This document shows, one piece after another, positions 22,874-63,337 of a DNA stretch of 64,000 nucleotides (within the stretch, counting starts at the first letter, position 1; every line of letters starts with the position of its first letter). The notes under the pieces are model-generated. The model had not been told where the DNA came from and did no database searches. It saw only the letters and a list, made by a program, of their open reading frames with translations. The position numbers and the translations under genes were made by a program. The stretch lies in IMG/VR virus record IMGVR_UViG_3300037423_002564; one strand, given 5' to 3'. The stretch is from a virus.

Positions 22874-22968
22874 CCTAAAAGCGAGGGCCGATCGTGTCAT
22901 ATAACCTCACGGGAAACATAGCGTTTTCTGGTCAACTGCGTGGGTCCACCCGCAAGGAGGTTCATATG
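22874..22968 (+). repeat. Repeated promoter/leader element, copy 1
   Basis: CCTAAAA-N17-CATATAACC, hairpin CGGGAAAC/GTTTTCTG, GGG-TCCA-CCC hairpin, GGAGG, ATG; similar to 23632-23726. Confidence 0.75.
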
Positions 22969-23376
22969 ATCCAGCGTCTCTTCAGCTTCCGCCGCAAGCC
23001 CGCGCCGGTCCTGGCCGTCCTCTTCCCCGAGGTGTGGGCGCAGGTCGACGCGCTGCCGCTCAAAGTGCGCGCCGTGCTCACCAACGCCGCCCCGCCGAAC
23101 ATGCTCGTCGCCGGCATCCATCCGATGATCGACGACGGCATGGACGCCACCTACCGCCAGGAGACGGGCCCCGGCACCCCGGGCGTCCACTCCCTGATGG
23201 TCAGCTTCGTCCCGAACAAGCCGGCCTGGAACTCCGCCGACCAGCAGACCGTGGACGTCCTCCTGACGCCCGAAATGGCGCTGGCCGTCTACCAGGTGCG
23301 CGCGCAGCTCGGCTGCGGCTACCGTCTGGCCTGCCGGAAGAGCTGGCAGGCGGCGTCCCGCACGGTGAAGGTGTAG
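22966..23376 (+). CDS. Hypothetical early protein
   Basis: ATG 22966 after AAGGAGG. Confidence 0.7.
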   Translation: MIQRLFSFRRKPAPVLAVLFPEVWAQVDALPLKVRAVLTNAAPPNMLVAGIHPMIDDGMDATYRQETGPGTPGVHSLMVSFVPNKPAWNSADQQTVDVLLTPEMALAVYQVRAQLGCGYRLACRKSWQAASRTVKV

Positions 23377-23378
23377 CC

Positions 23379-23636
23379 ATGCAGCGCTACGATCTCGAAC
23401 CACGCTGGGACGAGCCCAACAACCGGGCTGGCCGGCGCCACCGCTACGATCTTGACTACGACTACCACGGCGAACGGGGTGCGGGTTCCTGGCCTCCGGT
23501 CCGGCGACCCCGCGGCCGGCGGCCCCGCGCCCACCGCTCCCGCCACGACGTGCGCTTCCACCGCCCGCGCCGGCGCTTCGAGCTGGTGGTCGAAGAGGTC
23601 GTCCTGGCCCCCGAATGGGCCGTGGAAACGGCCTAA
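23379..23636 (+). CDS. Small Arg-rich hypothetical protein
   Basis: ATG 2 nt after the upstream stop (MQRYDLEPRW). Confidence 0.5.
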   Translation: MQRYDLEPRWDEPNNRAGRRHRYDLDYDYHGERGAGSWPPVRRPRGRRPRAHRSRHDVRFHRPRRRFELVVEEVVLAPEWAVETA

Positions 23637-23726
23637 AAAACCGGTTAAAACCCCCCATATAACCTTACGGGAAACACTGCGTTTTCCGGTCACGATGCGG
23701 GTCCACCCGCGAGGAGGTTCACGATG
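23632..23726 (+). repeat. Repeated promoter/leader element, copy 2
   Basis: CCTAAAA-N17-CATATAACC, hairpin CGGGAAAC/GTTTTCCG, GCGGG-TCCA-CCCGC, GAGGAGG, ATG. Confidence 0.75.
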
Positions 23727-23975
23727 GCGACTGCCACCAACAACACCGTCCCCACCGCCGCTGCCGCTGCCACCCCGGCCCCCAAGCAGCCGCTGGTCGC
23801 CCTGTCGGCGAACGGCACCCTGGTCTTCGCCCCCAAGGCGGTCGACGCCGCCAAGGTGGTTGCCAAGGGCGCCGCCCTGGCCGCCATCGGCTTCGGCCTG
23901 TCCAAGCTGGGCGTCAAGGTCAGCGACCTGAACGCGCCCAAGCCGGCCGGCTGGTTCGATGCCTTCTACTGGTAA
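23724..23975 (+). CDS. Small Ala/Gly-rich putative membrane protein
   Basis: Strong RBS; hydrophobic GAALAAIGFGL segment. Confidence 0.7.
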   Translation: MATATNNTVPTAAAAATPAPKQPLVALSANGTLVFAPKAVDAAKVVAKGAALAAIGFGLSKLGVKVSDLNAPKPAGWFDAFYW

Positions 23976-24071
23976 GACGCACGTCGAGCGCCCCCATCCG
24001 GGGACGCTCCCTCGTGCGCCTTTGCACGATGTTACCCACGATGCGGGCCCACCCGCGAGGAGAAGAACACC

Positions 24072-24380
24072 ATGACCCAGACCAACAACGCCTCCCAGCC
24101 CTCCGTCCACAACCCCAACCCCGGCACCACGGTCGCCCTGCCGTCGCTCCAGCCCATCGTCTACTTCGACGTGGAGGAGCTGATCGACGCGGCGGCCCGC
24201 AAGGCCAAGAGCGCCGTGGCGGCGGTCACGGACCCGGCGCTCCACCAGAAGGTGGGCCACGGGCTCGCGACCGTCGGCAAGGCCGCGGCGGTGGTGGGGC
24301 TGGCCGTCGGTGGCGCCGTGTTGGCGTCCGGCGGTATCCCCCAGAAGCCCGCGGCCACCAAGCTGTTCGGTCTCTGGTAG
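24072..24380 (+). CDS. Small putative membrane protein
   Basis: GAGGAG RBS; hydrophobic AAAVVGLAVGGAVLA segment. Confidence 0.7.
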   Translation: MTQTNNASQPSVHNPNPGTTVALPSLQPIVYFDVEELIDAAARKAKSAVAAVTDPALHQKVGHGLATVGKAAAVVGLAVGGAVLASGGIPQKPAATKLFGLW

Positions 24381-24388
24381 GAGCCCAG

Positions 24389-24450
24389 CCCGCCCCCGCT
24401 GCCTTCGGGCGGCGGGGGCGGGTGCCCCGGCCGCCCGGCCGCCTTTTTCT
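24389..24450 (+). terminator. Strong hairpin / probable terminator
   Basis: 15-bp stem with cUUCGg loop (24389-24422), then a small GC hairpin and a T-run. Confidence 0.6.
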
Positions 24451-24477
24451 TACGTGCCCGCGGCACAGGAGGTTCCG

Positions 24478-24759
24478 ATGGATTCCCCGCTTCTCACCCG
24501 GCAACTGCCCTTCGTCGACATCCCCGGCGGCAAGCCCGTCTCGATCACGCCGGACGGCGCCTTCACGCCCGTCACCAAGTACTACGTCCGCTTCCACAAC
24601 AACGGCGAGGACTACGCCCTGGCGGCCTTCACCGACCACCCCATCGTGGCCCTGATCCGCGTGGGGCTCCAAGGCTTCGAGGGCTACCGCCGCGCGGACC
24701 TGGTGACGCTCGACGAGCTGCGTCTGGCCGTCGAGGTGGCGAAGACACCATGCGCCTGA
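24478..24759 (+). CDS. Hypothetical protein
   Basis: ATG after AGGAGG. Confidence 0.65.
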   Translation: MDSPLLTRQLPFVDIPGGKPVSITPDGAFTPVTKYYVRFHNNGEDYALAAFTDHPIVALIRVGLQGFEGYRRADLVTLDELRLAVEVAKTPCA

Positions 24760-25055
24760 ACATCCCGCCCTATGGGGCCGTGACCCTGCACGCCACCCAC
24801 CCCAGCTCCGGCCGCGAGCTGGGCCTGCACCTGGAGCGCGACCAGCTCAAGAACGCCCGCCTGTCCATCAAGGGCGTGGTGGGCACCGTGCGCAACGGCC
24901 GCTCCATCCAGGTCGCCCAGGGCGCGCTGGTCGTCTTCGACCGCGCCGGCGTCGGCCACCCCTACCCCATCCCCGCCGACGGGCTCGATGTCGAGCTGCG
25001 CGGCAGCCTGTTCGACTTCGAGAAGTTGACGGGCATCAAGGTTCCCCCTCGGTGA
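24750..25055 (+). CDS. Hypothetical protein
   Basis: Overlapping operonic ORF. Confidence 0.6.
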   Translation: MRLNIPPYGAVTLHATHPSSGRELGLHLERDQLKNARLSIKGVVGTVRNGRSIQVAQGALVVFDRAGVGHPYPIPADGLDVELRGSLFDFEKLTGIKVPPR

Positions 25056-25168
25056 ACGGGTCCTGCGGCGCTGCGAGCGTCGGGGGCGCCGTTGGCTGGC
25101 CTTCCGGCCGGCCCGCGGCGCTCCCGACGCCGGCGCCGGGATCCCACCGACCGTTCTTTTAGCTCCCC

Positions 25169-25492
25169 ATGAAGGAGGACCCCGTGGAAGACCTGCTCAA
25201 GACCTTGCTCGAAGACCTCATGAAGGACAACTACGTCAAGCACACCTTCGGCAAGCGCATCGAGAAGGCGCTCAAGAAGCTCGACGAGACCGGCGGCGCC
25301 GACCCGGCCACCCTGGAGGCCGCGCTCGCGGCGCAGACGGCGATCGCCACGGTCGTGAAGCGGCTGGGAGGTGGCGCGAAGGCGCCCTCGAAAAGCCCCA
25401 AGCCCGCCACCGCCGACGACGTCAAGCGCGCCGCCAAGCCCCCCGCCGAAGCGGGCGGCGCGGGCCGCGCCCCTCGCGCCGCCGCCAAGTAA
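25169..25492 (+). CDS. Hypothetical protein with Lys/Ala/Pro-rich tail
   Basis: ORF with phage-like codon usage; true start may be the GTG a few codons in. Confidence 0.6.
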   Translation: MKEDPVEDLLKTLLEDLMKDNYVKHTFGKRIEKALKKLDETGGADPATLEAALAAQTAIATVVKRLGGGAKAPSKSPKPATADDVKRAAKPPAEAGGAGRAPRAAAK

Positions 25493-25907
25493 CGTGCCGA
25501 GCTGCGCCAACTGCCGCATCGCCGGCACCTGCATCCTACCGCAGAAGGCCGAGGGCCGCGCCTGCGGCTTTCACAACCTCAACCTCAACAAGATCATCAC
25601 GAAGGCCAAGCCGGCCGGCGTGAAGATCGCCTACGGCAGCGTTCCGACGCCGCCCACGCCCTCGCCCCAACCCGGTTCGCCGGCGCGGGACACCACCAAG
25701 AGGAGATGAAGGACAAGCCCCACGAGACCACCCCCGTCGAGGCCATCCAGCTCGCCGTCACGATGCTGGGCTTCGCGATCTTCTTCGTCAAGGCCCTGAC
25801 GGGCAGGAGGTAGCGATGTTCTGGAACTATCGCGACGAAGAGCCTACCATGAGCCCCGCCGGCTTGCTGTTCTACGGCCTGCTGGTTCTGTTTTCCAAGT
25901 TTATGAA

Positions 25908-26516
25908 GTGAGGATGAACGTGACGACTGACATCACTATTCCGCCGGACTTGCCGCGTGCCGGCAGCCCCAAGGACGACGCGCGCAACATGGTGCTGCGC
26001 GATCTGGTCTGGCCGCTGATCGACGAGAAGAGCCAGAACAACATCGACAAGCGCCTCTGGCGCGGCGGCTTCGACATCGACAACGACGGCAAGTGGTACG
26101 TCGCCTACCACGACACCCCGGAGCGCTACAAGAACGGCGTGGCCCACGTGGCGTCGGTGATGAGCCGTCTGACCTTCTACGTGCCCCTGCCGGAAGACGG
26201 CTGCACGCTGTCGGGCGAGACCTGCAACTTCCTGCGCAACGCCACCGAGCTGAAGATCGTGGCCCAGGACGGCAGCACGGTCGACGTCGAGGTGCAGCTC
26301 CACGACAAGACGACCGAAGAGGGTCTGCCCGTGGGCAGCCTGGTCCCGCCGGCGGGCGTCAAGCTCTCGCACGCCGCCTGCCGCTTCACGTTCTACGGCG
26401 AGGACGTGGAGTACGAGGACAAGGGCCAGAAGGGCATCGAGGTCGTTATCTACGTTCGCCGCGGCGACTTCGGGAGGGCCAATGGACAGGCTGGAGATAG
26501 TTCCCATCGAGATTAA
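25908..26516 (+). CDS. Hypothetical protein
   Basis: ORF with phage-like codon usage. Confidence 0.65.
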   Translation: MRMNVTTDITIPPDLPRAGSPKDDARNMVLRDLVWPLIDEKSQNNIDKRLWRGGFDIDNDGKWYVAYHDTPERYKNGVAHVASVMSRLTFYVPLPEDGCTLSGETCNFLRNATELKIVAQDGSTVDVEVQLHDKTTEEGLPVGSLVPPAGVKLSHAACRFTFYGEDVEYEDKGQKGIEVVIYVRRGDFGRANGQAGDSSHRD

Positions 26517-28530
26517 ACGGGTGCCGGTCGACTTCGAGGACACCGTGAAGCGCCTGCGCACGCTGCTGGGCGAGCGCTTCATGATCCTCGGCGGCGCCGT
26601 GCGGGACATGTACTGCCTGGGGAAGTTCACCACGGACGTCGACGTCTTCGTCGACCACCAGGACTTCCCCGGCGGCGTCTCCGCCAAGCTGGGCGGCAAC
26701 GAGTTCGACAACCGGGGCGTGGTCGGCCACGGCCGCGCCAACCCCTACATGCGCTCCGGCGTGCTGTGGGTGGAGGGCTACGTCACCAAGACCAGCCTGG
26801 CCTCGCGGGGCAACCCGGGATGGGAGAAGGGCATCCCGGTGCAGGTGGTGGTCACGACCGACCCCGTCCTGGCCCTGCACTCCTTCGACTGGACCATCTG
26901 CCAGTTCGGCTACCAGCCCGGCGTCGGCTTCTTCGCCACCCGCCAGGCGCTGGAGAGCTGGCACGACAAGAAGCTCTACCTGTTCAAGTGCCACGCCTTC
27001 AGCCGCACCGTCGAGCGCATGGTGAAGCTCGCCAAGCGGCTGGGGCTGGGCGTGGACGAGGCGAGCGTCAGCATCCTGCACCACCGGGCCCAGTCGGAGA
27101 CCGACTTCGAGCGCCTCAAGAACAAGCCCCTGTCACGCCCGAAGGTGCCGGGCGACAAGAAGAAGCGCATGACCCTGGCCCAGATGAAGGATCTGAAGGA
27201 CGCCAACATGCGCAAGGACGTGGATTCCGTCATCAAGGGCGCCAGCATGAAGGGCATGAACGTGGCGGCCGTGATGCACCAGCTCCGCCACCACATGGGC
27301 TTCGAGCTGGGGCCCCTGGCCCGCGCCTTGGTCGACCACGACATGCCCAACCTGCGCTGGCTGGTGGAGTACGCGGAAGGCCGCATGATGAAGCCCACCA
27401 ACGACTTCGAGGTGGGGTTGACCGTGCGGCGGCCGGTGGGCGAGGTCACGTCGATGGTCACGGACTTCGACGTCTTCCACCTGCACGCGGACCACGCCCT
27501 CGCGGAGTTCCGGCTCTTCCGCGCCAACGTGCAGGAGGTCATCACCAGCTTCGAGAAGACGCGTGACATCGTCGCCGTGGCCCCGGAGCGGGATCGCTAC
27601 CTCCAGCGCCTGGCGAAGATCGAGCAGGCGATGGTGGACCTGCTGGCTGCCCAAGAGGCGGACTTCGCCGAGGGGCTGGTCACGACGGTCCACGAGCCGG
27701 GCTCGGAGCGTGCCAAGATCGACCGGGTGCGCCTGGGCAAGTTCCTGGGCAAGCTCGTCGACCACCTGGAGAAGCTCCCCGACACCGTCTCCATCGGCAC
27801 ACTGAAGCCCACCGAGCCCAAGAACGGCGAGCCGCCAGAGGACCGACCGAAGGTTGGTCAGATCACGGCGCCGGCGGAGACCCGGCTGGCCCTGGTGGCG
27901 CGGGCGAAGGTGCTGTACCGCACCTTCGAGCAGCGCGGCCGGGCCTGGGAGGCGCCGGAGTTCGAGGGCGTGGACTTCGTGGTCAGCAACGACTTCACCG
28001 ACCTCATGACCATCTCCACCAGCGGGCCCTGGGGTTCGCGCTGCTGGACGAGCTGCCAGAAGCTGGGCTCGGACATCGGCTACTACCGCTCCGTGGCCGC
28101 CAACACCCGCCACACCCTGGTGGCCTACCTGGCGAAGGGCACGGACTGGCTGGGCCGCGTGCTCCTGCGCGTCAACCCGCAGGAGCGCGCGATCGCCATC
28201 GAGCGCTTCTACGGCAACGACCACTACCACCGGGCGCTGATGGAGTGCATCCAGCAGCACCTGGGGGCCCACGTCAAGCCTGGCGTGGTCTATTCGGGCT
28301 ATGACTATCTGCCCTACTCCGACTGCTACAGCCCGTTCTGGGGGAAGCACCTGGTGCCCAGCATCGACACCCGGATGGACCGGACGCGACGCGAGGCCCT
28401 GGCCGAACCCGAGGTTATCGGGATCGTGGACCAGCTCGCCGGCCCGGAACGGGACCCGGACGAATGGGACACGCCTGGCTACTACAGCAGCGTTTCGGAG
28501 AAGGGGCAGGAGGACGAGCTTTGGTTCTGA
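26482..28530 (+). CDS. Nucleotidyltransferase (CCA/poly(A) polymerase head-like) fused to an unknown C-terminal region
   Basis: ILGGAVRD...TTDVDVF...FDWTICQFG is a class II-like NTase head; C-terminal WTSCQ..LVAYL..GRVLL..IERFYG region. Confidence 0.7.
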   Translation: MDRLEIVPIEIKRVPVDFEDTVKRLRTLLGERFMILGGAVRDMYCLGKFTTDVDVFVDHQDFPGGVSAKLGGNEFDNRGVVGHGRANPYMRSGVLWVEGYVTKTSLASRGNPGWEKGIPVQVVVTTDPVLALHSFDWTICQFGYQPGVGFFATRQALESWHDKKLYLFKCHAFSRTVERMVKLAKRLGLGVDEASVSILHHRAQSETDFERLKNKPLSRPKVPGDKKKRMTLAQMKDLKDANMRKDVDSVIKGASMKGMNVAAVMHQLRHHMGFELGPLARALVDHDMPNLRWLVEYAEGRMMKPTNDFEVGLTVRRPVGEVTSMVTDFDVFHLHADHALAEFRLFRANVQEVITSFEKTRDIVAVAPERDRYLQRLAKIEQAMVDLLAAQEADFAEGLVTTVHEPGSERAKIDRVRLGKFLGKLVDHLEKLPDTVSIGTLKPTEPKNGEPPEDRPKVGQITAPAETRLALVARAKVLYRTFEQRGRAWEAPEFEGVDFVVSNDFTDLMTISTSGPWGSRCWTSCQKLGSDIGYYRSVAANTRHTLVAYLAKGTDWLGRVLLRVNPQERAIAIERFYGNDHYHRALMECIQQHLGAHVKPGVVYSGYDYLPYSDCYSPFWGKHLVPSIDTRMDRTRREALAEPEVIGIVDQLAGPERDPDEWDTPGYYSSVSEKGQEDELWF

Positions 28531-28544
28531 AAGGAGATCCTCCC

Positions 28545-29033: not shown

Positions 29034-29084
29034 CCCTTCATCCCACGACCGGGGGACCACCCCCAAGAAAGGAATCTTTACACC

Positions 29085-30392
29085 ATGAGCACCAAGCTGA
29101 TCAACTCCATCATGTACGTCTTCGCCGCCGACCGCTTCGTGGACGCGCAGCGCGCCGCCGGCAACCTCACCCTCCCCTACACCTCGCTCTGCATCATGGG
29201 CCCCAAGGCGACCGGCAAGACCGTCGCCGTCAAGACGGCCGCGGGCGAGCTGGCGAGCCGGCTGGGCAAGACCCTGGTGGAGCACGGCAAGCCGGGCGAC
29301 GACGAGTTCGCCTACGTGCGCATGAGCTTCGCCGGCAAGGACAGCCCCGGCGAGGCCAACGGCCTGCAAGAGATCGTCGACGGCGAGACCGTCATCCTGG
29401 CCCACAGCAACTTCCCGCGCAGCGGCCAGGGCATCCTGCACATCGAGGAGTTCAACCGCGTGCTGCCGCAGCTCGCGCCCCTGCTCCAAGAACTGCCCGA
29501 CCAGCACCTGATGGACATCCACCGCCTGCCCCCGGGCTGGACGGTCATCTTCACCGGCAATCCCAGCTCCGACGAGGCCAGCGGCGACATGTACAGCGTC
29601 ACCGAGGTCTTCGACGCCAGCTTCTTCAACCGCCTCTCCACCGTCACCACCAACATCACCCACGAGGAGGCGGTGAAGTACGCCGCGGCCAAGGGCTGGA
29701 ACAAGTTCATGGTCAACTACATGGCGGTCAAGGCGCCGGACGACCGCCCGGCCATCGACTTGGAGCGCGCGCTGCCCGGCATGATCGTCGAGAACCAGCG
29801 CACCCGCCAGACGGTGTCCACCCTCTTGGAGGGCGCGCCCTTCGCGGCCAAGCTGGGCCTGCCGGCCCTGCACGAGGAGGGGGCGGAGCCCGAGCTGCGC
29901 TACCTGGTGGCCGGCGCGATGGGCAGGACCAGCGCGGTGGCCTTCATCAGCTCGATGAAGGTGGGCGATCGCCCGCTGGACGCCGTGGATGTCCTGGACG
30001 CCTACACCACCGGCACGGTGGTGGTTGAGACGGACTCCGACGGCAACCCCACCCGCACCAAGACCCACCGCGAGCTGGTGCAGGGCTGGAGCGACCCCAC
30101 CAACCGCACGAGCCAGGGCATCCTGGCCCACATCACCGTGGAGCGCGTTCTGGAGCGCATGAAGGAGCACGGCGCCGACAACCGCCAGCTCGCCAACCTG
30201 GACCTCTTCCTGACCGACCTGCGGCGCGACGAGGTGCAGTTCTTCATCCGCACCGCCCAGGGGCAGTTGCCCGTGCTGGGCGACGCCTACCTCGACATCG
30301 TGCAGAAGCACAGCGAGGACAACATGACCACCCTCGCCAACGCCATGACCCGGGGTCGCGGCAACGGCAACCGCCCCGTGCGGGCGAGCTAG
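29085..30392 (+). CDS. MoxR/dynein-related AAA+ ATPase
   Basis: Walker A GPKATGKT, Walker B ILHIEEFNR, LPPGWTVIFTGNP, FDASFFNRL. Confidence 0.85.
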   Translation: MSTKLINSIMYVFAADRFVDAQRAAGNLTLPYTSLCIMGPKATGKTVAVKTAAGELASRLGKTLVEHGKPGDDEFAYVRMSFAGKDSPGEANGLQEIVDGETVILAHSNFPRSGQGILHIEEFNRVLPQLAPLLQELPDQHLMDIHRLPPGWTVIFTGNPSSDEASGDMYSVTEVFDASFFNRLSTVTTNITHEEAVKYAAAKGWNKFMVNYMAVKAPDDRPAIDLERALPGMIVENQRTRQTVSTLLEGAPFAAKLGLPALHEEGAEPELRYLVAGAMGRTSAVAFISSMKVGDRPLDAVDVLDAYTTGTVVVETDSDGNPTRTKTHRELVQGWSDPTNRTSQGILAHITVERVLERMKEHGADNRQLANLDLFLTDLRRDEVQFFIRTAQGQLPVLGDAYLDIVQKHSEDNMTTLANAMTRGRGNGNRPVRAS

Positions 30393-30404
30393 GAGGCGCT
30401 CCCC

Positions 30405-31001
30405 ATGAGCAAGTCCCTGATTCAAACGCTGGTGATGCGCTTCGTCAAGACGGGCGTGGGCCAGGGTGACGGCGTCCACGGGCTGTTGAGCAACGACCTG
30501 GAAAAGGCGGTGGCGCATCTGGACGTCACGCCGCAGGAGCTGGTGGAGCTGGTCCGCTGGATGACCTGTAACATCCCGGCGGACTGCCACGGTAGCAAGT
30601 CCGCCTACCGCCAGTGGCCCCGCCGGCTGCTCATGCGCCAGCGGGCCACGGACATCCTGGCCGCCAAGCTCGGCCGCGAGCCCAACGGCGCGGAGGTCGA
30701 CAAGGAGCTGGAGGGCCGCGAGTACACGGTCTACGTCAATCCCGACCTGATCGAGGAGCTGCTGGACTACGAGGCCACCGGCCGCGAGCTGTCCAGCTTC
30801 CCGATGGCGCTCTTGGAGAACGACCTGATGGAGGCGCTCACCCGCGCCGACAACACCAGCCGGGCGGAGCTGCAAGAGACCATGCGCTGGATCTACACCT
30901 ACCTGGACAAGCGCTGCTACGGCGGCAAGGTCACGGTGGAGCGCTGGCAGCGTCTGGGCGGCCTCGAAGGCATCCGCGAGAAGGCCAAGGCCGGTGCCTG
31001 A
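30405..31001 (+). CDS. Hypothetical protein with two copies of a ~60-aa helical domain
   Basis: GLLSNDLEKAVAHLD...CHGS..Y..W and ALLENDLMEALTRAD...CYGG..V..W. Confidence 0.7.
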   Translation: MSKSLIQTLVMRFVKTGVGQGDGVHGLLSNDLEKAVAHLDVTPQELVELVRWMTCNIPADCHGSKSAYRQWPRRLLMRQRATDILAAKLGREPNGAEVDKELEGREYTVYVNPDLIEELLDYEATGRELSSFPMALLENDLMEALTRADNTSRAELQETMRWIYTYLDKRCYGGKVTVERWQRLGGLEGIREKAKAGA

Positions 31002-31479
31002 ACAGGTCGACAAGGCGGAGCAGCGCGCCGGCTTCGACCCTTTCAAGACCATATGGAACGTCCAGTACCTGGTCTCCGCGCTTCAGGGCTTCCGTCAGCT
31101 CCACCCGGAGCTGGCGGACTTCCCCGACGACCTGCTCGCCCGCGTGCAGGAAGACCTGTCTCACGACCGCCACTACGAGGTCGGGTTCTCCGACGGCGTG
31201 CCCCGCGAGATGTGGCACGCCCTAGAGCGCTACGCCTACGAGGGCCTGGAGCTGGGCAGCTTCTTGCAGGCGTGCGTGGCGAACGACCTAGGCAAGGCCA
31301 TCCAGGTCGCCGACCAGACCAACCGGCGCTGCCTGAACGGCATCCTCTTCGCGGTCTGGTCGCTGGTGCCCGGCGAGGCCACCGGCAGCTACGCCGCCTA
31401 CCACCGCTGGATCGACAAGCACAAGGACCGCCGGCCGCCGGACACGCGCGGCCCGCAACCCCCTTTTGAAGTACCGTAG
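30994..31479 (+). CDS. Hypothetical protein with one copy of the same domain
   Basis: GSFLQACVANDLGKAIQVAD...ATGS..Y..W. Confidence 0.7.
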   Translation: MPEQVDKAEQRAGFDPFKTIWNVQYLVSALQGFRQLHPELADFPDDLLARVQEDLSHDRHYEVGFSDGVPREMWHALERYAYEGLELGSFLQACVANDLGKAIQVADQTNRRCLNGILFAVWSLVPGEATGSYAAYHRWIDKHKDRRPPDTRGPQPPFEVP

Positions 31480-31491
31480 GAGGGACCACCC

Positions 31492-32844
31492 TTGATTATT
31501 AAGGACGCGTCGTTATACGACCAATTCGAGGCCGTCAAGCTGGGCACGGCCAACCAGGACCTGGCCCTGGGCATGTTCTACGCCGGCCTCATCCGCCAGA
31601 TGTGGGTCGTGATCCTCGACCACATCCCGGGCGGCACCGACGCCGCGGTGATGTTCAAGGGCACCCAGGCCATCCTGATGCTCACGCCGGCGTTCTTCAG
31701 CGAGCAGCCGTTCGCGGAGCAGATCACTACGCTCGACCACGAGCTGATGCACCTGGTGCTCAAGCACACCATCATCTACAAGGACTTCTGGAACAAGATC
31801 AAGCTGGTCGCCCAGAGCCCGGGCGGCCCGCCGCAGATCATCGACCTCATGAACTTCGGCGCCGACCTCGTCGCCAACGGCTACCTGCCGGCCAAGAAGG
31901 TGCCCGACCACTGGCTCAAGCACGAGCACTTCGGGATGAAGGGCGGCCTCTCCGCTCTCGACTATGCCAACGAAATGTTGGAACGTTTGCAGGGCGGAGG
32001 TGGGTCGGACGGCAACAAGGACAGCCTTCCCCAGTTCGACCCCGAGCTGAACGAGGAGCTGAAGAAGTTGCTCGAAGCGATGGCCCAGCACTACGGCCTG
32101 ACGGAGGGCGAGGAGCCCACCTTGGTGGACCCGCACGTCGTCTGGCTGGAGGGGCACCCCGACATCGGCGAGGCGGACTTCGACCCGGAGATCGCCGAGG
32201 TCGCCATCGACCAGATGATCCTGCGCGCGGCGGAGACGGTGCCGGAGCACCTGCGCGGCAACCTGCCGGGCGTGCTCAAGAAGGTGGTCGAGCAGGCCAG
32301 CGTGCGTTCGGTGGTGGCCTGGCACCAGGTGTTGCGCCGCTTCAACGTGAGCGTCGGCTCCTGCACGATCGTGCCCACCATGGTGCGCCGCAACCGCATC
32401 ACGGGCAACCGGCCGGGCAACCGCGTCAAGCCGCGCTGGAAGCTCGCCATCGTCCTCGATGGCAGCGCGTCGGTGGACGACTCGCACTGGCGCCAGTTCG
32501 TCACCGAGGTCCACTACGCCTGGAAGATGGGCGCGGACATCACCATCATCAAGCACGACGCCAAGATCTTCTCCGTCGCCAAGTACGACGGCAAGAACCT
32601 GGACTTCGACCGCACCTACGGCGGCACGGACCACACCGAGGTGATCGAATACCTGAACAAGCACAAGTTCGACGGCGCCGTGGCCTTCACCGACGGCGGG
32701 ACCTGGATCTCCAAGCCCATCCGTCCGCGCTGCCGCTTCGCCTGGCTGATCACCCACGACGGCGACGCGAACGTCCGCCAGCACCAGAATTGCAACTTCG
32801 GCCAGGTCATCACCATGAAACCGCCCGCCTCCCAGGCGGCGTAG
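31492..32844 (+). CDS. HEXXH metallopeptidase-like + vWA domain protein (DUF2201-type)
   Basis: HELMHLVLKH, N..ADL.AN, MIDAS-type LDGSAS, YGGTD, FTDG. Confidence 0.85.
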   Translation: MIIKDASLYDQFEAVKLGTANQDLALGMFYAGLIRQMWVVILDHIPGGTDAAVMFKGTQAILMLTPAFFSEQPFAEQITTLDHELMHLVLKHTIIYKDFWNKIKLVAQSPGGPPQIIDLMNFGADLVANGYLPAKKVPDHWLKHEHFGMKGGLSALDYANEMLERLQGGGGSDGNKDSLPQFDPELNEELKKLLEAMAQHYGLTEGEEPTLVDPHVVWLEGHPDIGEADFDPEIAEVAIDQMILRAAETVPEHLRGNLPGVLKKVVEQASVRSVVAWHQVLRRFNVSVGSCTIVPTMVRRNRITGNRPGNRVKPRWKLAIVLDGSASVDDSHWRQFVTEVHYAWKMGADITIIKHDAKIFSVAKYDGKNLDFDRTYGGTDHTEVIEYLNKHKFDGAVAFTDGGTWISKPIRPRCRFAWLITHDGDANVRQHQNCNFGQVITMKPPASQAA

Positions 32845-32857
32845 AGAGGGACCACCC

Positions 32858-34207
32858 TTGCACGAACAGAACTCCCTGACGGCGGACCAAGCCCGCCGTC
32901 TCATCTGGAACATGAACTACCCGGAGCAAGAAGCGCTCATGGCCCAGCTCATGGTCGACTTCTTCAGCGGCGCCAACCGCACCGAGGACCTCGCGGGCTC
33001 CGGCAACCCGCTCGTCGAGATGTGGAACAACGTCGCCACCGTGATCCCCGCCAACGGCTGCCGGTTGATGCTCGCCATCTTCCGGCGGATGGGCAAGGTG
33101 GCCCACGAGGGCGTCAACGCCACCTACGACGTCAGCCAGGCGCACCAGCTCCAGCGTCTGGCCGTGAACCCGGAGCTGCCCCAGGACACGCTCGACCAGC
33201 TCATCACCATGGGCGTCCAAGGCGTGGTCTGCCCGCTGCCGGGCGGCAGCTACCGCCCCTTCACGTCCCCGCAGATCGACGCCATCGTGCGGGGCCTGCC
33301 GCCCAAAGGGGCGCTCCTGACCTGGGTGCGCGACAACTACGGCGTCCTCGACATCAAGCAGCGCACGGCCTTCGCGCTGCGCTTCGCCCAAGACCCCTCG
33401 CGGTCGGAGCGCTCCAGCGGCATGGTGGGTGGCAACGACCCGGCCGACGTCGTCTTCCAGAAGCTGGCGGGCGATCCGTTGCTGCCGGAGGAGGCCGTGC
33501 GCGCGCTGTGGTCGACCTACACCGCCAGCCGCTGGATGCTGGTGTGGCACCCGGCCCTCGCGGACGACCTCTTCCAGGACGTCGTCGCGGAGATGGCCGA
33601 CCCGGAGCGCCGCGCCTTCATCCCGCTCTTCGAGCAACTCGTGGCGGAGGTCTTCAAGAGCGACCGCCTGGATACGCGCTACCTGCACCTCTTCTTCGCC
33701 GACAAGGCGATGTGGAAGCACATCGCGCGCAACCCCAACCTGCCTATCAACATGGCCTACGTCATCCGGGCCGAGGAGAACCACGAGCTGCACCGGGCCC
33801 TGCTCGCCAACCGCGGACTGGACGCGGCGGCGTGGAACGACGTGCTCGACGACTTCCTCAAGTACGGCACGCCCATCGGCAACCTGGACGCCATGCTCAA
33901 CCCGCAGATCAGCTACGACAACCTGCTCAAGCTGTACCGCAGCGAGCTGCGCTTCCCGCGCCAGCAACTGGAGTGGTTCTTCGTGAGCCCGGCAGCCGAC
34001 GAGACGTTCCGCAAGGAAGTCATCAAGCGCCTGACCGGCACGGAAAACGAGATCTCCAGCTTCTGCGCGGACCTGCTGCGCAAGTACCCGGAGCTGTTCA
34101 CGCCGGAGCTGGCGGAGCTGGCGAAGGAGAAGCTCTTCGGCAACACCTGGGAAGTCCGGCACGCCAAGGCCACCCTCGAACAGATGGAGAAGGCCCATGC
34201 GAAATGA
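32858..34207 (+). CDS. Alpha-helical repeat protein
   Basis: Recurring LAVNPELP, LAGDPLLP, VWHPAL, IARNPNLP, MLNPQI. Confidence 0.6.
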   Translation: MHEQNSLTADQARRLIWNMNYPEQEALMAQLMVDFFSGANRTEDLAGSGNPLVEMWNNVATVIPANGCRLMLAIFRRMGKVAHEGVNATYDVSQAHQLQRLAVNPELPQDTLDQLITMGVQGVVCPLPGGSYRPFTSPQIDAIVRGLPPKGALLTWVRDNYGVLDIKQRTAFALRFAQDPSRSERSSGMVGGNDPADVVFQKLAGDPLLPEEAVRALWSTYTASRWMLVWHPALADDLFQDVVAEMADPERRAFIPLFEQLVAEVFKSDRLDTRYLHLFFADKAMWKHIARNPNLPINMAYVIRAEENHELHRALLANRGLDAAAWNDVLDDFLKYGTPIGNLDAMLNPQISYDNLLKLYRSELRFPRQQLEWFFVSPAADETFRKEVIKRLTGTENEISSFCADLLRKYPELFTPELAELAKEKLFGNTWEVRHAKATLEQMEKAHAK

Positions 34208-37050: not shown

Positions 37051-37815
37051 ATGAAATTCAGCGAGATCCAAGAGAAGCTGGCCCAGCCCTTCGACGAGGT
37101 GAAGTTCCGCGCCGGCGCCACCCGCGACGCGCGCGGCGGCGGCAAGGAGTGCAAGCCGCTGGGCTACATCGACGCCGCCGACGTGATCGACCGGCTCAAC
37201 GAGCACTGCCCGGACGAGTGGTCCGAGGAGTACGAGCTGACGCGCCCCGGCGTCATCATGTGCAAGCTCACCATCTGCGGCATCACCCGCTGCGGCGTGG
37301 GCCAGGCCGGCAAGAAGGACGAGGAGCCGGAGAAGTCGGCCGAAAGCGACGCCCTGAAGCGCGCGGCGGTCAAGTTCGGCATCGGAACGTATCTTCGTCG
37401 CTGGGACCTGCCGTACCACCCGATGGTGCGCAAGAGCGACAACGACTACTACTTCGACAGCTACGCCTACGTCCCGCCGGCGGACATCCCGCTCAAGGGG
37501 CGCCGCACGCGCTACAAGCGCAACGCCGGCAAGGCGGAGGAGTCGACGGAGACCCTGATCCAGCCGCGCATCGAGCGCAAGGACGGACCGAAGGTCGAAC
37601 CCGCGGGTCCGTCCACCGAGAAGCTGGCGACGGAAGCCCAGATCAAGCGCATCAAGGACGAGCTGGAGAAGCGCGCCGTGGCCGCCGGTCAGCTCGAAAC
37701 CTACCTGGAGCGCTGCAACGTGACGCGGGTCGAGGACTTGCCCTTCAAGCACGCCAGCTCGCTCATCGACAAGCTCAAGGTCCTGCCGCTCAAGCAGGCC
37801 AGCCCCAAGGCATAG
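37051..37815 (+). CDS. Rad52/Sak-family single-strand annealing protein
   Basis: LGYIDAADVIDRLNE..W...CKLTI.GITR..VG...KSAESDALKRAAVKFGIGTYL; C-terminal ATEAQIKRI...ASSLIDKL. Confidence 0.9.
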   Translation: MKFSEIQEKLAQPFDEVKFRAGATRDARGGGKECKPLGYIDAADVIDRLNEHCPDEWSEEYELTRPGVIMCKLTICGITRCGVGQAGKKDEEPEKSAESDALKRAAVKFGIGTYLRRWDLPYHPMVRKSDNDYYFDSYAYVPPADIPLKGRRTRYKRNAGKAEESTETLIQPRIERKDGPKVEPAGPSTEKLATEAQIKRIKDELEKRAVAAGQLETYLERCNVTRVEDLPFKHASSLIDKLKVLPLKQASPKA

Positions 37816-38521: not shown

Positions 38522-38561
38522 GAGCCGCTTCACGAGCGGGACCACCCGCGAAAGGAGCTTT

Positions 38562-39425
38562 ATGCTGTACATGACCAAGGCCGCCGCCTGGACCGCCGGC
38601 CACAAGATCACCCTGGGGCTCGCCGACCTGGTGGGCCTGCGCATCACCCGCAACGTCTGCCACGACGTGTACGCCCGCTACCGCAGCCGCCACGGCCGAC
38701 CGGAGGGCCACCAGTGCATCGGCCACCAGGCCGTGCGGCACGAGCGCGAGGCCCTCACCGGCCGCGGCTACATCATCGACCGGGTCGAGCGCCGCTGCTG
38801 GATCTCCATCCAGCCCGTCACCGGCGACGACCGCGAGTGGCCCGGCTTCTGCCTGACCCAGGCGGAGTGGGCGCAGTTCTGGCGCGGCGAGGTGACGCGC
38901 GTCTCCACCGAGCCGATGGGCGACGTCGACCGCGCCTACGCGAGCTACCACTGGCGCGGCTTGGAGTTCGAGATGCTGGACTACAGCGGCACGTTCCGCC
39001 GGCTGCGCCTGGAGGTGCCGCGCGAGCTGGTGCAGGCTGCCATCGGCAAGGTCATGACCCTGGGCTACGGCGATCGCTACGGCCGCAACACCACGCGGCT
39101 CGTGCCCATCACGGAGCGCCACAAGGCGTTCTGGTCGCCTAATGCGCGCATCGTCTGGGAAGGCGAGGTCTACGACGCCTACCAGGCGCGCAAGGACTGG
39201 GCGGCGGGCTACGCCGGCAGCGACCGCACGCTGGCCGACCTGATCGAGGACAAGCTCCAGCAGGCCCGCAACCGCAGCCGCAGCCAGGCCGACAGCTACT
39301 CCGTCCACGTCCACTGGGAGAAGCCCAACAACTTCGTCTGGACGATCCTGCGTGACCGGGACAATGCCTTCGTGTACAACGGTGGCCTGATCTGGCGCGG
39401 CGACCACTATAGCTCCCACACGTAA
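38562..39425 (+). CDS. Hypothetical protein
   Basis: ATG after AAAGGAG; C-terminal YNGGLIW...YSSHT. Confidence 0.7.
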   Translation: MLYMTKAAAWTAGHKITLGLADLVGLRITRNVCHDVYARYRSRHGRPEGHQCIGHQAVRHEREALTGRGYIIDRVERRCWISIQPVTGDDREWPGFCLTQAEWAQFWRGEVTRVSTEPMGDVDRAYASYHWRGLEFEMLDYSGTFRRLRLEVPRELVQAAIGKVMTLGYGDRYGRNTTRLVPITERHKAFWSPNARIVWEGEVYDAYQARKDWAAGYAGSDRTLADLIEDKLQQARNRSRSQADSYSVHVHWEKPNNFVWTILRDRDNAFVYNGGLIWRGDHYSSHT

Positions 39426-40976: not shown

Positions 40977-41185
40977 TAGGCATCGCGGTCTACCAGTGGT
41001 GGGCCGACTCTGGACGGCGGCTGGGCGGCATCATGTGCTGCCAGACCTGCCAGCGCAACGGCGAGATGCCGGACTTCATCCACGTCAACCACGACCATCC
41101 CGGTCTCAAGCAGTTCTACGGCACCCAGGACGAGATCGAGCCCGTGCTCGGCATCGTCGCGTGGGGCCACCCCAGCCTCGCATAG
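40871..41185 (+). CDS. Small CxxC..CxxC protein with ADSGR motif (start uncertain)
   Basis: CTFC...WWADSGRRLGG..CCQTC. Confidence 0.6.
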   Translation: MEAGARLTWRVLPTAEETSEWHCTFCWKGLNGYPLVGIAVYQWWADSGRRLGGIMCCQTCQRNGEMPDFIHVNHDHPGLKQFYGTQDEIEPVLGIVAWGHPSLA

Positions 41186-41199
41186 AAAGGGACCACCCT

Positions 41200-54398: not shown

Positions 54399-54407
54399 GA
54401 GATCGAC

Positions 54408-57834: not shown

Positions 57835-57836
57835 AC

Positions 57837-58193
57837 ATGAAAACGAAGAAGAAGAAAACCTACCCCAAGGTTCACATCACGGCGGCCGATCTGGCCGCCC
57901 TACCGGAGTACTCCGCCTCCTTGCCTACCGGCACCTATTTGGGCAAGCGCTGGAAGCGCGATTGCGGTCCCGACCGGGATTCCGGCCGCAAGACCTGGTT
58001 CATCGGGGAGTTCTACCCCATCGACATCCCCGGAGAGGTGGGCATCCGCTGGAGCGAGGTGTGGCTGGTGCCCGCCTACGGACCGACGGAGATCCACCCC
58101 AAGGAGGCCAAGACCTGCCTCTGCCACACCGAGCCCTACAAGTTCGGCGTCTGCCACGTATGCGCGGCCTGGCGCTGGAAGCACGAGCGATAG
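57837..58193 (+). CDS. Hypothetical protein with RDSGR motif
   Basis: LPEYSASLPTGTYLGKRWKR...DRDSGRKTWF. Confidence 0.65.
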   Translation: MKTKKKKTYPKVHITAADLAALPEYSASLPTGTYLGKRWKRDCGPDRDSGRKTWFIGEFYPIDIPGEVGIRWSEVWLVPAYGPTEIHPKEAKTCLCHTEPYKFGVCHVCAAWRWKHER

Positions 58194-58202
58194 CGAGGAC
58201 CC

Positions 58203-60484: not shown

Positions 60485-60972
60485 ACGAGCCCACGGTCTT
60501 CCGCGGCCCGCGGATGGAGGACTTCCCCGACACGCCCGAAGGGTCGGACGCCTACGGCAACGCGTACTGGAAGGCGCGCTGGGACTTCATTCACGCCGGC
60601 CACTCCGAGCGCTTCGAGGAGCACTGCCTGGCCGAGGAGGACGGCACCACCTACGAGTTCCAGGTGGAGCAGCGCACCCAGAGCGGCACCACCGCTTCCG
60701 ACCTGCCGGTCTACGACGACGTGGACCAGGCGATCGCCTACCTCGAAGCGGCGCCGTTCGCCGGCATGGTCCAGCGCTACGTCAAGGGCGCCAATTGGCT
60801 CACGGCCGGCATCGCCTACGAGAAGCACCGCGGCATCAAGGACCTGTGGCTCGCGCGCAACGAGATGCCCGACATGCCCCACTGGCACGGCGAGCGCCAG
60901 TGCGACAGCGGGCGCTACTTCTTCGTGCGCTGCGAGCTGTGTAAAGACCGAGCCGACACCCGGACCCCGTAG
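60481..60972 (+). CDS. Hypothetical protein with CDSGR motif
   Basis: GTG overlaps the upstream stop; HWH..RQCDSGRYFFVRCELC. Confidence 0.65.
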   Translation: MNEPTVFRGPRMEDFPDTPEGSDAYGNAYWKARWDFIHAGHSERFEEHCLAEEDGTTYEFQVEQRTQSGTTASDLPVYDDVDQAIAYLEAAPFAGMVQRYVKGANWLTAGIAYEKHRGIKDLWLARNEMPDMPHWHGERQCDSGRYFFVRCELCKDRADTRTP

Positions 60973-61039
60973 GCTCGCCGACCAGACAGGGAATAGTTAG
61001 AGTAAGATTGTGATGTACCTCTGAAAGGAGGCCCTCCCC

Positions 61040-61738
61040 ATGTCGAAGCTGATGACCGGTGCGCTCCTCGCTGCCACGCTGGCGGGCTGCACCTTCAACG
61101 TCGTGAACCCGAAGGTCTCCGGCCTGGTGGCCGAAAAGGGCATCAACGTGAGCGGCCAGGTCAACGCGGTCGCCAATGTGACCACGCAGACGGCCGCGCC
61201 GGCGACGGTGCTTTCGACGGCGGCGCCCGCGGTGGCGACGCTGGAGGTGCCAGCCCCCGCGTCCACCCCCGTCCTCGCGACGCCGGCGCCGGCGGTGCCG
61301 ACCGTGGTGCCCACGCCCCGGCAGACGCCCGGCCCCGCCAAGCTGATCTTGGACGGGTTCGAGGCCCACGCCATCTCCGTCTACGGCGGCGACGGCAGCA
61401 CCGACGCCAAGGTGTCCGTCTTCCAGCCCGGGGACCGGGTCGCCATCCGGCCCCTCCTGAAGAACGTGGGCGGCTACCCGGCCACCGCGCCCCAGGTGGT
61501 GCCGACGAGCGACGACGCGCGCGCGGAGGTCTCGCTCTGCTACGGTGGCGAGCAGGCCCCCCTGGCCTACTACGACATCCCTGTGGGCGCGACCCAGGGG
61601 CCCTGGCACGCCGGCGGCGGCTTCTGCCTGGACATCTCCAAGCAGTGGCCCCATGGCAAGCCCATCAGCATCACCCTGCGCGTGCAGGACGGCAACGCGA
61701 ACACGTGGGGCCTGACGCTGGAGATTCCCGTGCTATGA
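61040..61738 (+). CDS. Putative lipoprotein with Pro/Thr/Ala linker and Ig-like domain
   Basis: MSKLMTGALLAATLAG-C lipobox; P/T/A-rich stalk; PGDRVAIRPLLKNVG; AAGGAGG RBS. Confidence 0.75.
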   Translation: MSKLMTGALLAATLAGCTFNVVNPKVSGLVAEKGINVSGQVNAVANVTTQTAAPATVLSTAAPAVATLEVPAPASTPVLATPAPAVPTVVPTPRQTPGPAKLILDGFEAHAISVYGGDGSTDAKVSVFQPGDRVAIRPLLKNVGGYPATAPQVVPTSDDARAEVSLCYGGEQAPLAYYDIPVGATQGPWHAGGGFCLDISKQWPHGKPISITLRVQDGNANTWGLTLEIPVL

Positions 61739-62178
61739 CCCCAGAACTCCTGAAGTCGCGCGTGATGAACATCGTGCGCGAGGACTTCCGGCTCACCTTC
61801 GAGCTGAACCCCGAAATGCGGCCCCTCATGCGCGGTCACACCGTCAGCATCGAGGGGCTGTCTGGTGAAGACATCCTGCCAGAGCTATCCCGCGCCCACA
61901 TCGAGCTGGTGGTGCTGGACGGCGAGCGCTGGGAGCGCCGCGGCCAGGTCGACTCCGACGAGGCGGCCGTGCGCGTGGCCGGCTACGCCACCTACGCCAT
62001 CAAGATCGGCTACGACGCCGGCCCCGAGGTCGGCGAGATAGGCGAGGGCTGGAAGGTGGTCCACGGCCTGGAGGGCATCGTGGCCCACCTCATCAAGGAA
62101 AACGACGAAGTGGCGGCGGAGCAAGAACGGTTCCGCAGCAGCGAGTACTTTGGGGACCACCCCGACGAGGAGGAATAA
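61735..62178 (+). CDS. Hypothetical protein
   Basis: ATGA overlap with the upstream gene. Confidence 0.6.
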   Translation: MTPELLKSRVMNIVREDFRLTFELNPEMRPLMRGHTVSIEGLSGEDILPELSRAHIELVVLDGERWERRGQVDSDEAAVRVAGYATYAIKIGYDAGPEVGEIGEGWKVVHGLEGIVAHLIKENDEVAAEQERFRSSEYFGDHPDEEE

Positions 62179-62179
62179 C

Positions 62180-63337
62180 TTGAAAACGTGGCTTGATGAA
62201 TACATCAAGTTCTCCGCCGAGACCTGGGACATGTTCATGGTGGCCTGCAAGAAGGCGATGGGCACCTACCTGAAGGTGGACTCGGTCTGGGAGAAGGCGT
62301 TCATGTGGAACCAGATGGCCTTCATGACCGACGAGACGGTCGGCATGAAGAGCGACGGGTCGGCGGTGCTGCCGCGGGACGTCGAGATCTTCCGCCGGTT
62401 CTACGTGGACCTGCTCAACCGGCTCTCGCCGTGGAGCTACGTCACCTTCGAGAACCTCTCCAACAAAGCGATCTACTACTTCGGCCCCTTCGCCGCCCAG
62501 GGCCACAAGGAACCCCTGAACCTCCAGATCGCCCCCGACCTGGCGGAGGACTTCCACGGCGCCCACGCGCCGGAGACGGAGATGTGGCGCGAGGTCTTCG
62601 ACCGCCACTCCGTGGTGTACCTCGACTTCCCACCCGGCACCTACACCTGGGACGACCAGTACGAGGTGCGCGCGGTCTTCGCCACCAACGACATCATGAG
62701 CGAGCGCGACCTGCGCTTCGTCTGGATGAAGCACGGCGAGCCGATGCTAAGTCCGCACTACCCCAAGCTCAACGTCATGGTGGTGCTGATGGAGAAGGGC
62801 AAGCTGTCCTTGGACAACGTGTTCCAGTTCGGCTTCGCGGAGAACGAACCCTGGAGCTTCTACGGCGGCCTGGAGCAGTGGAACGCCCGGGCGATCGCAG
62901 CCAAGGGCCAGGACCCGGTCGAAGCCTACAGCGGCACGATGCAGCACGTCGTGGACCTCATCAAGCTCTCGATCCTCTACCAGCAGACCAAGGAGAGCCC
63001 CACCGTCTTCCTGCCCCAGGTCGACATCCAGCAGGTCGAGGCCCTGCGAAACCCCAAGAAGCAGAAGACGCGCTTGCGCGAGAACAGCCTGTTCAAGGTG
63101 GCGCGCCTGTCGAGCCCCAAGGGCCGCTTCGGCCGCACCAACCAGGAGGCCAAGCCCCACGAGGGCTACCAACTGGGCCACCGCGTGGCGGTCCGCGGCC
63201 ACTTCCGCATGCAGGCGCACGGCCCCGGCTGGAGCGAGCGCCGGCTGCGGTGGATCGATGCCTTCGAGAAAGGACCGAAGGATGGTCCTATCAAGCCCCC
63301 CAAGCAAACCCTCCATGTGCTCAAGAAGGAGCTATAA
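62180..63337 (+). CDS. Hypothetical phage protein with C-terminal VRGHFR..RWI motif
   Basis: TTG after GAGGAGG; VRGHFRMQAHGPG..RRLRWI..FEKGP. Confidence 0.7.
   Translation: MKTWLDEYIKFSAETWDMFMVACKKAMGTYLKVDSVWEKAFMWNQMAFMTDETVGMKSDGSAVLPRDVEIFRRFYVDLLNRLSPWSYVTFENLSNKAIYYFGPFAAQGHKEPLNLQIAPDLAEDFHGAHAPETEMWREVFDRHSVVYLDFPPGTYTWDDQYEVRAVFATNDIMSERDLRFVWMKHGEPMLSPHYPKLNVMVVLMEKGKLSLDNVFQFGFAENEPWSFYGGLEQWNARAIAAKGQDPVEAYSGTMQHVVDLIKLSILYQQTKESPTVFLPQVDIQQVEALRNPKKQKTRLRENSLFKVARLSSPKGRFGRTNQEAKPHEGYQLGHRVAVRGHFRMQAHGPGWSERRLRWIDAFEKGPKDGPIKPPKQTLHVLKKEL

Follow-up and report, generated by a model that had tools for sequence, protein, structure and literature searches.

In Cluster K mycobacteriophages, the start-associated sequence (SAS) is an asymmetric 13-bp element, GGGATAGGAGCCC, with an AGGAG core and symmetric GGG/CCC ends, and it occurs in 11-19 copies of one orientation in the non-structural half of the genome, 3-7 bp before start codons (Pope et al. 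2011, PMC3203893). According to a 2025 survey of 188 genomes, the function of the SAS is still unverified (PMC12699233). Here we describe an element of comparable outline in an uncultured jumbo phage of ~204 kb, IMG/VR virus record IMGVR_UViG_3300037423_002564, the single genome on which the finding rests. The window, i.e., the whole stretch of 64,000 nucleotides (nt) under study, comprises bases 114,867-178,866 of a single contig of 203,733 bp (67.6% GC), and positions refer to the window unless a genome position is named. The element is a 10-nt motif, GGGNCCACCC, in which GGG and CCC can pair around a four-base NCCA loop, and it stands at the translation starts of nine non-structural genes. 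The motif is real: it is not random, and it is tied to starts and to one strand. We propose, tentatively, that it may serve as an RNA operator hairpin by which these genes would be regulated together.

The window contains 10 exact matches to GGGNCCACCC, all of them on the + (sense) strand, compared with 1.72 +/- 1.26 in dinucleotide shuffles of the window, none of 100 shuffles reaching 10. The whole genome holds 12 copies, 11 sense (+) and one antisense (-). A simple gene caller that uses codon bias and the Shine-Dalgarno (SD) sequence predicted 289 genes covering 93.7% of the genome; 10 of the 12 copies are fully intergenic, against an intergenic share of 6.3%, and the Poisson probability of at least nine sense intergenic copies is ~3e-12 (~0.22 expected; a hand estimate from base composition). 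In nine copies the distance from the 3' end of the motif to a start codon is 0-22 nt. The initial annotation had listed nine hairpins, with none noticed before structural genes, and had proposed a genome-wide search for enrichment near starts on the sense strand; the coordinates, stems and start codons of all nine were confirmed, the enrichment was found, and across the genome no structural gene is preceded by the motif. Its list was incomplete, as it lacked the copy at 41163-41172 in the window and those at genome 33557 (+) and 44462 (-) outside it.

The motif is also recovered without prior knowledge of its sequence: among 8-mers enriched de novo upstream of the 289 predicted starts, GGGACCAC/GGACCACC belong to the top three signal families, the other two, besides SD variants, being the GGTAGTACC operator arrays and the CCCTATAAT promoters. 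Variants of GGGNCCACCC with one mismatch (n=108) are nearly all coding and show no start linkage, so the motif is tight. There are 115 GGG-N4-CCC sites in all, and those of them near starts have an NCCA loop; the single start-proximal site filed under the loop CCAC is site 41163 in its other register, and NCCA-loop hairpins with stems of at least 4 bp near starts are essentially these motif sites alone. The identical 10-mer is present seven times, in six cases 5' of a separate SD. The copies in the window, with the length of the gene product in amino acids (aa) and the local folding energy (dG) where relevant, are the following:

22940..22953 (+), hairpin GU-GGG-UCCA-CCC-GC in the leader of gene 22966-23376 (136 aa); it ends 14 nt before the ATG, the SD AGGAGG begins 4 nt past the motif, and the local dG is -7.5.
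23697..23710 (+), hairpin GC-GGG-UCCA-CCC-GC in the duplicated leader of gene 23724-23975 (83 aa); 15 nt to the ATG, pair probability 1.0, dG -9.4.
24043..24056 (+), hairpin GC-GGG-CCCA-CCC-GC of gene 24072-24380 (102 aa); 17 nt to the ATG. Its 26-nt context is almost identical to that of site 23697, which makes it a partial third copy of the leader.
29051..29064 (+), hairpin GG-GGG-ACCA-CCC-CC of the ATPase gene 29085-30392 (PHROG 1297); 22 nt to the ATG, dG -10.2.
31480..31493 (+), hairpin GA-GGG-ACCA-CCC-UU abutting TTG 31492 of the DUF2201 metallopeptidase/vWA gene (PF09967, PF13203); the GGG belongs to the SD AGGAGGG and the stem takes in the first two bases of the start codon.
32846..32859 (+), hairpin GA-GGG-ACCA-CCC-UU abutting TTG 32858 of a 449-aa gene; it occupies the 13-nt spacer after a TAG stop, with a pair probability of 0.99.
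38536..38549 (+), hairpin GC-GGG-ACCA-CCC-GC of gene 38562-39425 (287 aa); 14 nt to the ATG, CACGA on its 5' side, dG -9.3.
41163..41172 (+), orphan copy GGGGCCACCC within the last codons of the upstream open reading frame, 16 nt before the next copy; the common register gives no stem extension, and an alternative GGGG-CCA-CCCC triloop is possible.
41188..41199 (+), hairpin A-GGG-ACCA-CCC-U ending 1 nt before ATG 41200 (137-aa gene); the GGG is the SD, and the pair probability is 0.83.
62150..62165 (+), hairpin UUG-GGG-ACCA-CCC-CGA before TTG 62180 (385-aa gene), within the 3' end of gene 61735-62178; dG -7.6.

From the end of the motif to the start codon, the nine start-proximal sites measure, in order, 14, 15, 17, 22, 0, 0, 14, 1 and 17 nt, which confirms the earlier division into six hairpins just upstream of the SD and three overlapping the SD/start region. 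At the six sites 14-22 nt from the start, a separate SD begins 4-8 nt after the motif; at the three others (0, 0 and 1 nt), the GGG lies within an SD-like purine run (AGGAGGG, GAGAGGG, AAAGGGA) and the spacer is ACCACCC. About 40 gene junctions of the motif region have spacers of at least 8 nt, nine of them with the motif, and in spacers of 40-151 nt it is always found at the SD-proximal end. At site 62153 it even lies inside the coding end of the upstream gene, where it is read as Gly-Asp-His-Pro, so that the SD-proximal position is preserved. Both directly abutting sites have a TTG start, the start codon of 9% of genes, and the first two U's of this codon pair with the A and G on the 5' side of GGG and so lengthen the stem; the start at TTG 31492 is confirmed by homologues sharing the N-terminus MIIKD. 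Over all starts of the genome (n=289, positions -12 to -1), initiation regions are rich in G from -12 to -8 and contain ~50% C from -4 to -1, e.g., GGAGGCCCC-ATG, a general pattern of SD and C-rich spacer that is also present in a related phage, G005 (see below). The TAG of gene 30994-31479 and the vWA TTG stand on either side of the hairpin, separated by 12 nt, and share one reading frame (region 30994-32844), and read-through at this TAG would fuse the 30994 and vWA proteins. As no such frame is kept at the other sites, the arrangement is probably incidental, and a stop-codon read-through signal was rejected because the frames are inconsistent across sites.

Four hairpins have a CACGA 2-4 nt on their 5' side, which may be a linear companion element; two of the four are related by duplication. 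The contexts (window coordinates) are:

23686-23696, CACGA context of the hairpin at 23697.
24032-24042, CACGA context of the hairpin at 24043.
29039-29050, CACGA context of the hairpin at 29051.
38526-38535, CACGA context of the hairpin at 38536.

All covariation figures rest on an ungapped alignment of the 11 sense copies, in which GGG and CCACCC are the only invariant parts. The pair directly outside GGG/CCC (8-19) is AU in three copies, CG in three, GC in two, UG in one and unpaired in two (9/11 paired), and the next pair outward is GC in five, GU in two, AU in one, UG in one and unpaired in two. The covariation score is 0.324 as against 0.154 in shuffles, 4 of 500 shuffles reaching it, and it falls when the 3' partner is slid; RNAalifold independently gives the same 5-bp stem. 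The compensatory change of outer stem pairs noted in the initial annotation is thus real, though modest. Stems of 4-6 bp are formed at all nine start-proximal sites, whereas the copies without an adjoining SD/start (41163 and genome 33557) show no stem extension in that register. Local folding predicts the hairpin at most sites; its energies range from -4.7 to -10.2 kcal/mol, and the three core pairs exceed a probability of 0.8 in 7 of the 11 contexts (75 nt each). A single duplicated promoter-leader unit gave rise to sites 22942, 23699 and 24045, so that the sample amounts to about 7-9 independent sites rather than 11. Since the arms vary in a correlated and not a consensus-keeping way, and the invariant loop is asymmetric, a single-stranded (RNA) hairpin is favoured over a protein-bound palindrome; a sense-strand RNA hairpin thus appears, with moderate support from the alignment, preferable to a duplex DNA site.

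The + strand carries every gene from 20.5 kb to past 64 kb of the window. Within this region the non-structural array between 22.9 and 62.2 kb holds 10 of the 11 sense copies, and only two copies of the genome lie outside it. Elsewhere in the genome, TATAAT-type promoters and GGT[AC]N[GT]ACC operator arrays are widespread, but 22.9-68 kb contains neither; the ~45-kb + strand array (22900-68000) has no recognisable promoter except two TATAAC units at its start, and its genes are probably early genes. Three small basic proteins (isoelectric points 9.2-9.8) open the array, and all three of their genes carry the hairpin. In both duplicates, the order of the unit is TATAAC -10 box, 5' hairpin, NCCA hairpin and SD; the hairpins lie ~36 nt downstream of the -10 boxes, and no copy overlaps either box. 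The signals of this first unit are:

22900..22905 (+), -10-like TATAAC of the first promoter-leader unit, read from the consensus only; with this box, hairpin 1 would fall in the 5' untranslated region.
23658..23663 (+), -10-like TATAAC of the second (duplicated) promoter-leader unit.
24428..24451 (+), intrinsic-terminator-like site, the sole clear one in 20-40 kb, which closes the three-gene hairpin unit.

Later copies open or lie within the module of the ATPase and the DUF2201 metallopeptidase/vWA protein and a two-gene unit at 38562, and others stand at the start of a small-gene array (41200) and at the first gene after that array (62180). The motif array also encodes a Rad52/Rad22-family single-strand annealing protein (PF04098, E 3.7e-10; 37051-37815). 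Outside the window, the + copy at genome 33557 follows directly on the TAG stop of a 95-aa gene and is itself followed by a terminator-like hairpin and, 33 nt on, by the start of an XRE-type helix-turn-helix (HTH) gene. This unit (genome 33224-33962; L003:725-1463) consists of a TATAAT promoter, the 95-aa gene of no assigned function, the TAG, GGGACCACCC, the GC-rich terminator-like hairpin and the HTH gene (PF01381, E 6.6e-9), whose start has no SD. About 400 nt beyond it lies an operator pair, GGTCAGACCACCCGTT, which has 11 nt (GACCACCCGTT) in common with the 33557 copy. Membership of the motif in the family of the GGT-N3-ACC operators was rejected, since the motif lacks an ACC at +8 and has a different invariant core. 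The single - copy, at genome 44462, falls within a terminator-like hairpin of transcripts from the + strand and is probably not a member of the family.

Relatives of this phage were found by protein comparison. The vWA and ATPase proteins have only two homologues each at 52-72% identity, all from Logan assemblies; they come from the two nearest relatives, which are known here as proteins. Scans of IMG/VR and of JGI metagenomes with these two proteins and with alignments of them gave no match. When IMG/VR was scanned for the pattern of motif and flanks, one random coding match came up. By portal alignment, IMG/VR relatives at 46-55% identity were obtained, and in five IMG/VR relative records the motif occurs at control frequency, without enrichment. 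One relative, G005, is a complete 208-kb syntenic genome with a portal 51% identical, in which 98 of the 289 proteins have a match and the synteny includes the ATPase-vWA region; the ATPase module is missing from four other relatives and from the L005 fragment. G005 has an early-gene leader repeat of its own, CATTGAAAGGAG, in ~7 copies at 89.7-94 kb, and this leader, ...TTACTTACATTGAAAGGAG..., stands directly before ~7 small genes (L088:9778-14028) and has no NCCA hairpin. From these sequences, the start-linked repeats of this genome region seem to differ from one related phage to another.

Operators of RNA-binding proteins include those of the MS2 and PP7 coat proteins, of T4 gp43 and of ThrRS. 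The conserved loop and closing pairs, the restriction to the sense strand and the position next to ribosome-binding sites favour an operator of this kind for the motif described here. GGGNCCACCC would then be a cis-acting element of the sense-strand messenger RNA (mRNA) at the ribosome-binding region of the nine genes, its hairpin composed of an invariant 3-bp G-C stem, one to three co-varying outer pairs and a 4-nt loop with an invariant CCA. A putative phage or host factor, most likely a protein, would read the loop and the closing G-C pairs, and once bound might hinder, or possibly help, ribosome loading, or might direct a cut beside the SD, so that all nine genes would come under a joint post-transcriptional switch. 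The sequence shows the motif with its strand, its position and the covariation; that it acts as RNA and through a trans factor, and which way the effect would run, is what we infer. That the motif is a post-transcriptional operator hairpin for a putative RNA-binding factor that would block ribosome loading or direct a cut by the SD is the reading we put forward, with a confidence that falls a little short of even. A more specific form of it is possible, if somewhat unlikely: one RNA-binding factor would read the NCCA loop, as a mimic of the 3' end of transfer RNA (tRNA) or transfer-messenger RNA (tmRNA), closed by three G-C pairs, and would co-switch nine early genes, including the ATPase and vWA-metallopeptidase module, in a previously undescribed post-transcriptional regulon of a phage. 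As a whole, the regulon interpretation is plausible, on the basis of a single genome.

Several observations weigh against this operator reading. With few copies, three of which go back to a duplication, the covariation is modest (4 of 500 shuffles). The predicted accessibility of the SD/start of the nine motif genes is no different from that of 279 other scored genes, so the hairpin alone does not mask the ribosome-binding site, and SD sequestration as a mechanism was rejected. The motif takes two registers relative to the start (0-1 and 14-22 nt), unlike an operator of fixed geometry, although both registers fall within the footprint of an initiating ribosome and are therefore compatible with an operator. 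The GGT-N3-ACC arrays hold similar positions before the SD and are read as a DNA operator. The homologous junctions of G005 are without the motif, the genes there overlapping by 1-32 nt, which makes the motif lineage-specific and without cross-genome support, G005 being the only syntenic relative read. Finally, no trans factor was found, and the motif-bearing genes have no Pfam/NCBIfam matches pointing to RNA binding. What stands of the regulon proposed in the initial annotation is a sense-strand, sequence-specific, hairpin-capable element at the initiation regions of non-structural genes; the regulator it called for did not emerge from the search.

The initial annotation had also pointed, as a speculation, to a CCA-type nucleotidyltransferase encoded nearby, and this link is unsupported. 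The 682-aa protein concerned (26482-28530) matches PHROG 1614 'nucleotidyltransferase' alone (E 1.6e-7), and has no Pfam, NCBIfam or PDB sequence match; the genome contains no tRNA genes, and the gene has no hairpin of its own. The phage tmRNA (10078-10526; Rfam, 72 bits) ends in ...CUCCACC followed by U, so that the terminal A of CCA is not encoded and a CCA-adding activity would have something to do; a connection between the enzyme and the hairpin is speculative. No exact complement of the motif, as an antisense partner, exists elsewhere in the genome. In the last pseudoknot region of the tmRNA, GGGUGGUCGC (10403-10412) is complementary to the motif at 9/10 positions, which is compatible with chance, and the tmRNA was rejected as such a partner. 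Rfam covariance models run over 22-64 kb with E up to 5 gave no match, the tmRNA being the sole Rfam match in the window. The product of gene 22966 was considered as a binder and set aside: its Atlas neighbours are weakly OB-like with TM below 0.4, and its AlphaFold model (pLDDT 38) is unusable. A text match to 'GGGACCACCC' in a CsoR operator (PMC3902906) was likewise discarded, as the strand is printed 3'->5' there and the real site is a C-tract followed by a G-tract.

A rival reading places the motif at the level of DNA. A phage protein might bind duplex GGGNCCACCC in the gaps of the early array and block or modulate the elongation of transcripts, as an oriented, stoperator-like operator with the same role in this region as the GGT-N3-ACC arrays have elsewhere in the genome. 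The site is asymmetric, keeps a single orientation and occupies short gaps within a single long transcription unit, as do the stoperators of phage L5 (PMC3203893), it complements the operator arrays and TATAAT promoters that are missing from 22.9-68 kb, the arrays are likewise found just 5' of SDs, and one copy precedes the XRE-type HTH gene by 33 nt. However, the flanks co-vary for complementarity and not towards a consensus, no copy overlaps a promoter, the placement beside the SD is tight even in long spacers, and the TTG starts lengthen the stem, all of which fits a DNA site poorly, and we regard this explanation as unlikely.

An RNA structure acting in cis without any partner, e.g., as a processing boundary, a stabiliser of 5' ends or a ribosome standby element that sets the mRNA half-life or translation efficiency of selected cistrons, would be in keeping with the intergenic positions in a polycistronic array, the moderate stability of the hairpins and the one copy in a 3' untranslated region before a terminator. 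It does not account for the invariant CCA loop and GGG/CCC, and neither one-mismatch variants at starts nor other stems with NCCA loops are found, which makes it quite unlikely. We are more doubtful still about a nut/boxB-like site, at which the nascent RNA hairpin would bring a factor for antitermination or elongation to RNA polymerase and so allow the ~45-kb promoter-poor array to be read through terminators. The first three copies do stand in leaders just after the two duplicated promoters, before the small basic proteins and then terminator 24428, the CACGA before four hairpins recalls a boxA-boxB layout, and there are almost no recognisable promoters downstream; but ten copies, three of them fused to the SD/start, do not resemble nut sites, the loop has no GNRA-like sequence, an N-like arginine-rich motif is not established, and the SD adjacency would be left unexplained. 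Lack of function, i.e., a chance repeat, an effect of SD/spacer composition or a REP-like selfish palindromic repeat spread into gene gaps, is highly improbable in view of the enrichment, the sevenfold identical 10-mer, the strict strand bias and flanking repeats at background level (for which reason a mobile cassette with target-site duplications was rejected), even though initiation regions generally resemble GGG...CCC in their G-rich (-12 to -8) and C-rich (-4 to -1) parts and the genes of G005 overlap at places where motif-bearing spacers stand in this phage.

The operator reading can be set beside several known systems. In MS2, the SD of the replicase start is the 5' strand of the hairpin, and the start codon comes after the 3' strand or reaches into it; the three abutting sites of our phage show the same arrangement. 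The coat operators of MS2 and PP7 are likewise small hairpins at a ribosome-binding site with a sequence-specific loop, and the stable hairpins of 4-6 bp at nine start-proximal sites, adjoining the SD/start and changing in a compensatory way, correspond to what is expected of an RNA hairpin operator. MS2 and PP7 are single-stranded RNA phages with one operator per genome and a bulged A, whereas nine operators are predicted here in a double-stranded DNA jumbo phage. In lambda, boxB is a 5-bp stem with a small loop downstream of early promoters, and T4 RegB cuts at the SDs of early mRNAs. The motif shares with lambda nut and with the T4 RegA and RegB systems the nature of a signal in early transcripts, and in lambda and T4 a small phage protein co-regulates many early genes. 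It differs from nut, which has a boxA and a boxB with a GNRA-like pentaloop once per early operon, in its 4-nt NCCA loop and in its ten copies, far more than nut sites, with CACGA at four sites, and it differs from RegA/RegB targets, which do not form hairpins of fixed loop. The Cluster A stoperators (the sites of L5 gp71) are similar in being asymmetric, short and multi-copy, in short intergenic gaps and in one orientation relative to transcription; they are, however, duplex DNA bound by the immunity repressor, with one operator overlapping the early promoter, and in operators of this type base identity rather than complementarity would be expected to be conserved, whereas here the flanks alternate among AU, CG, GC and UG and co-vary as a stem (0.324 vs 0.154), no promoter is overlapped and no repressor is assigned.

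Judged by analogy, the closest described counterpart is the SAS of Cluster K, with which outline and logic are shared. Both are short asymmetric repeats of GGG...CCC outline, in ~10-19 copies of nearly one orientation, just before starts, in the non-structural part of the genome only, and both are lineage-specific; here 11 sense copies and one antisense copy are present, with 10 of the 11 in the 22.9-62.2 kb array. The motif is, however, 10 nt long with an NCCA core, compared with 13 nt and AGGAG, and GGGNCCACCC does not match the consensus GGGATAGGAGCCC at up to two deviations, the outer GGG/CCC alone being shared. In the SAS the SD core lies inside the repeat, 3-7 bp from the start, whereas here distances are 0, 0, 1 and 14-22 nt, six of nine sites lying upstream of a separate SD and three abutting the start; since both sequence and spacing differ, the motif is not a member of the SAS family. 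Flanking pairs co-vary in this phage's motif, ESAS-like 17-bp inverted repeats are not present here, and host and phage lineage differ (this phage, at 204 kb, is unrelated and much larger). The motif delimits a candidate regulon and helps to fix start codons, two of them TTG, in a mostly unannotated genome, and as a compact operator candidate of 10-16 nt it is testable. If the regulon reading is true, it would give a mechanistic handle on the whole class of 'start-associated sequences', which have been known since 2011 without an established mechanism. The motif adds a second start-linked repeat, unrelated to the SAS, from a very different phage, with clearer hairpin covariation and two registers relative to the SD, and the two unrelated cases suggest that such repeats may be a recurrent route by which phages co-regulate accessory or early genes after transcription.

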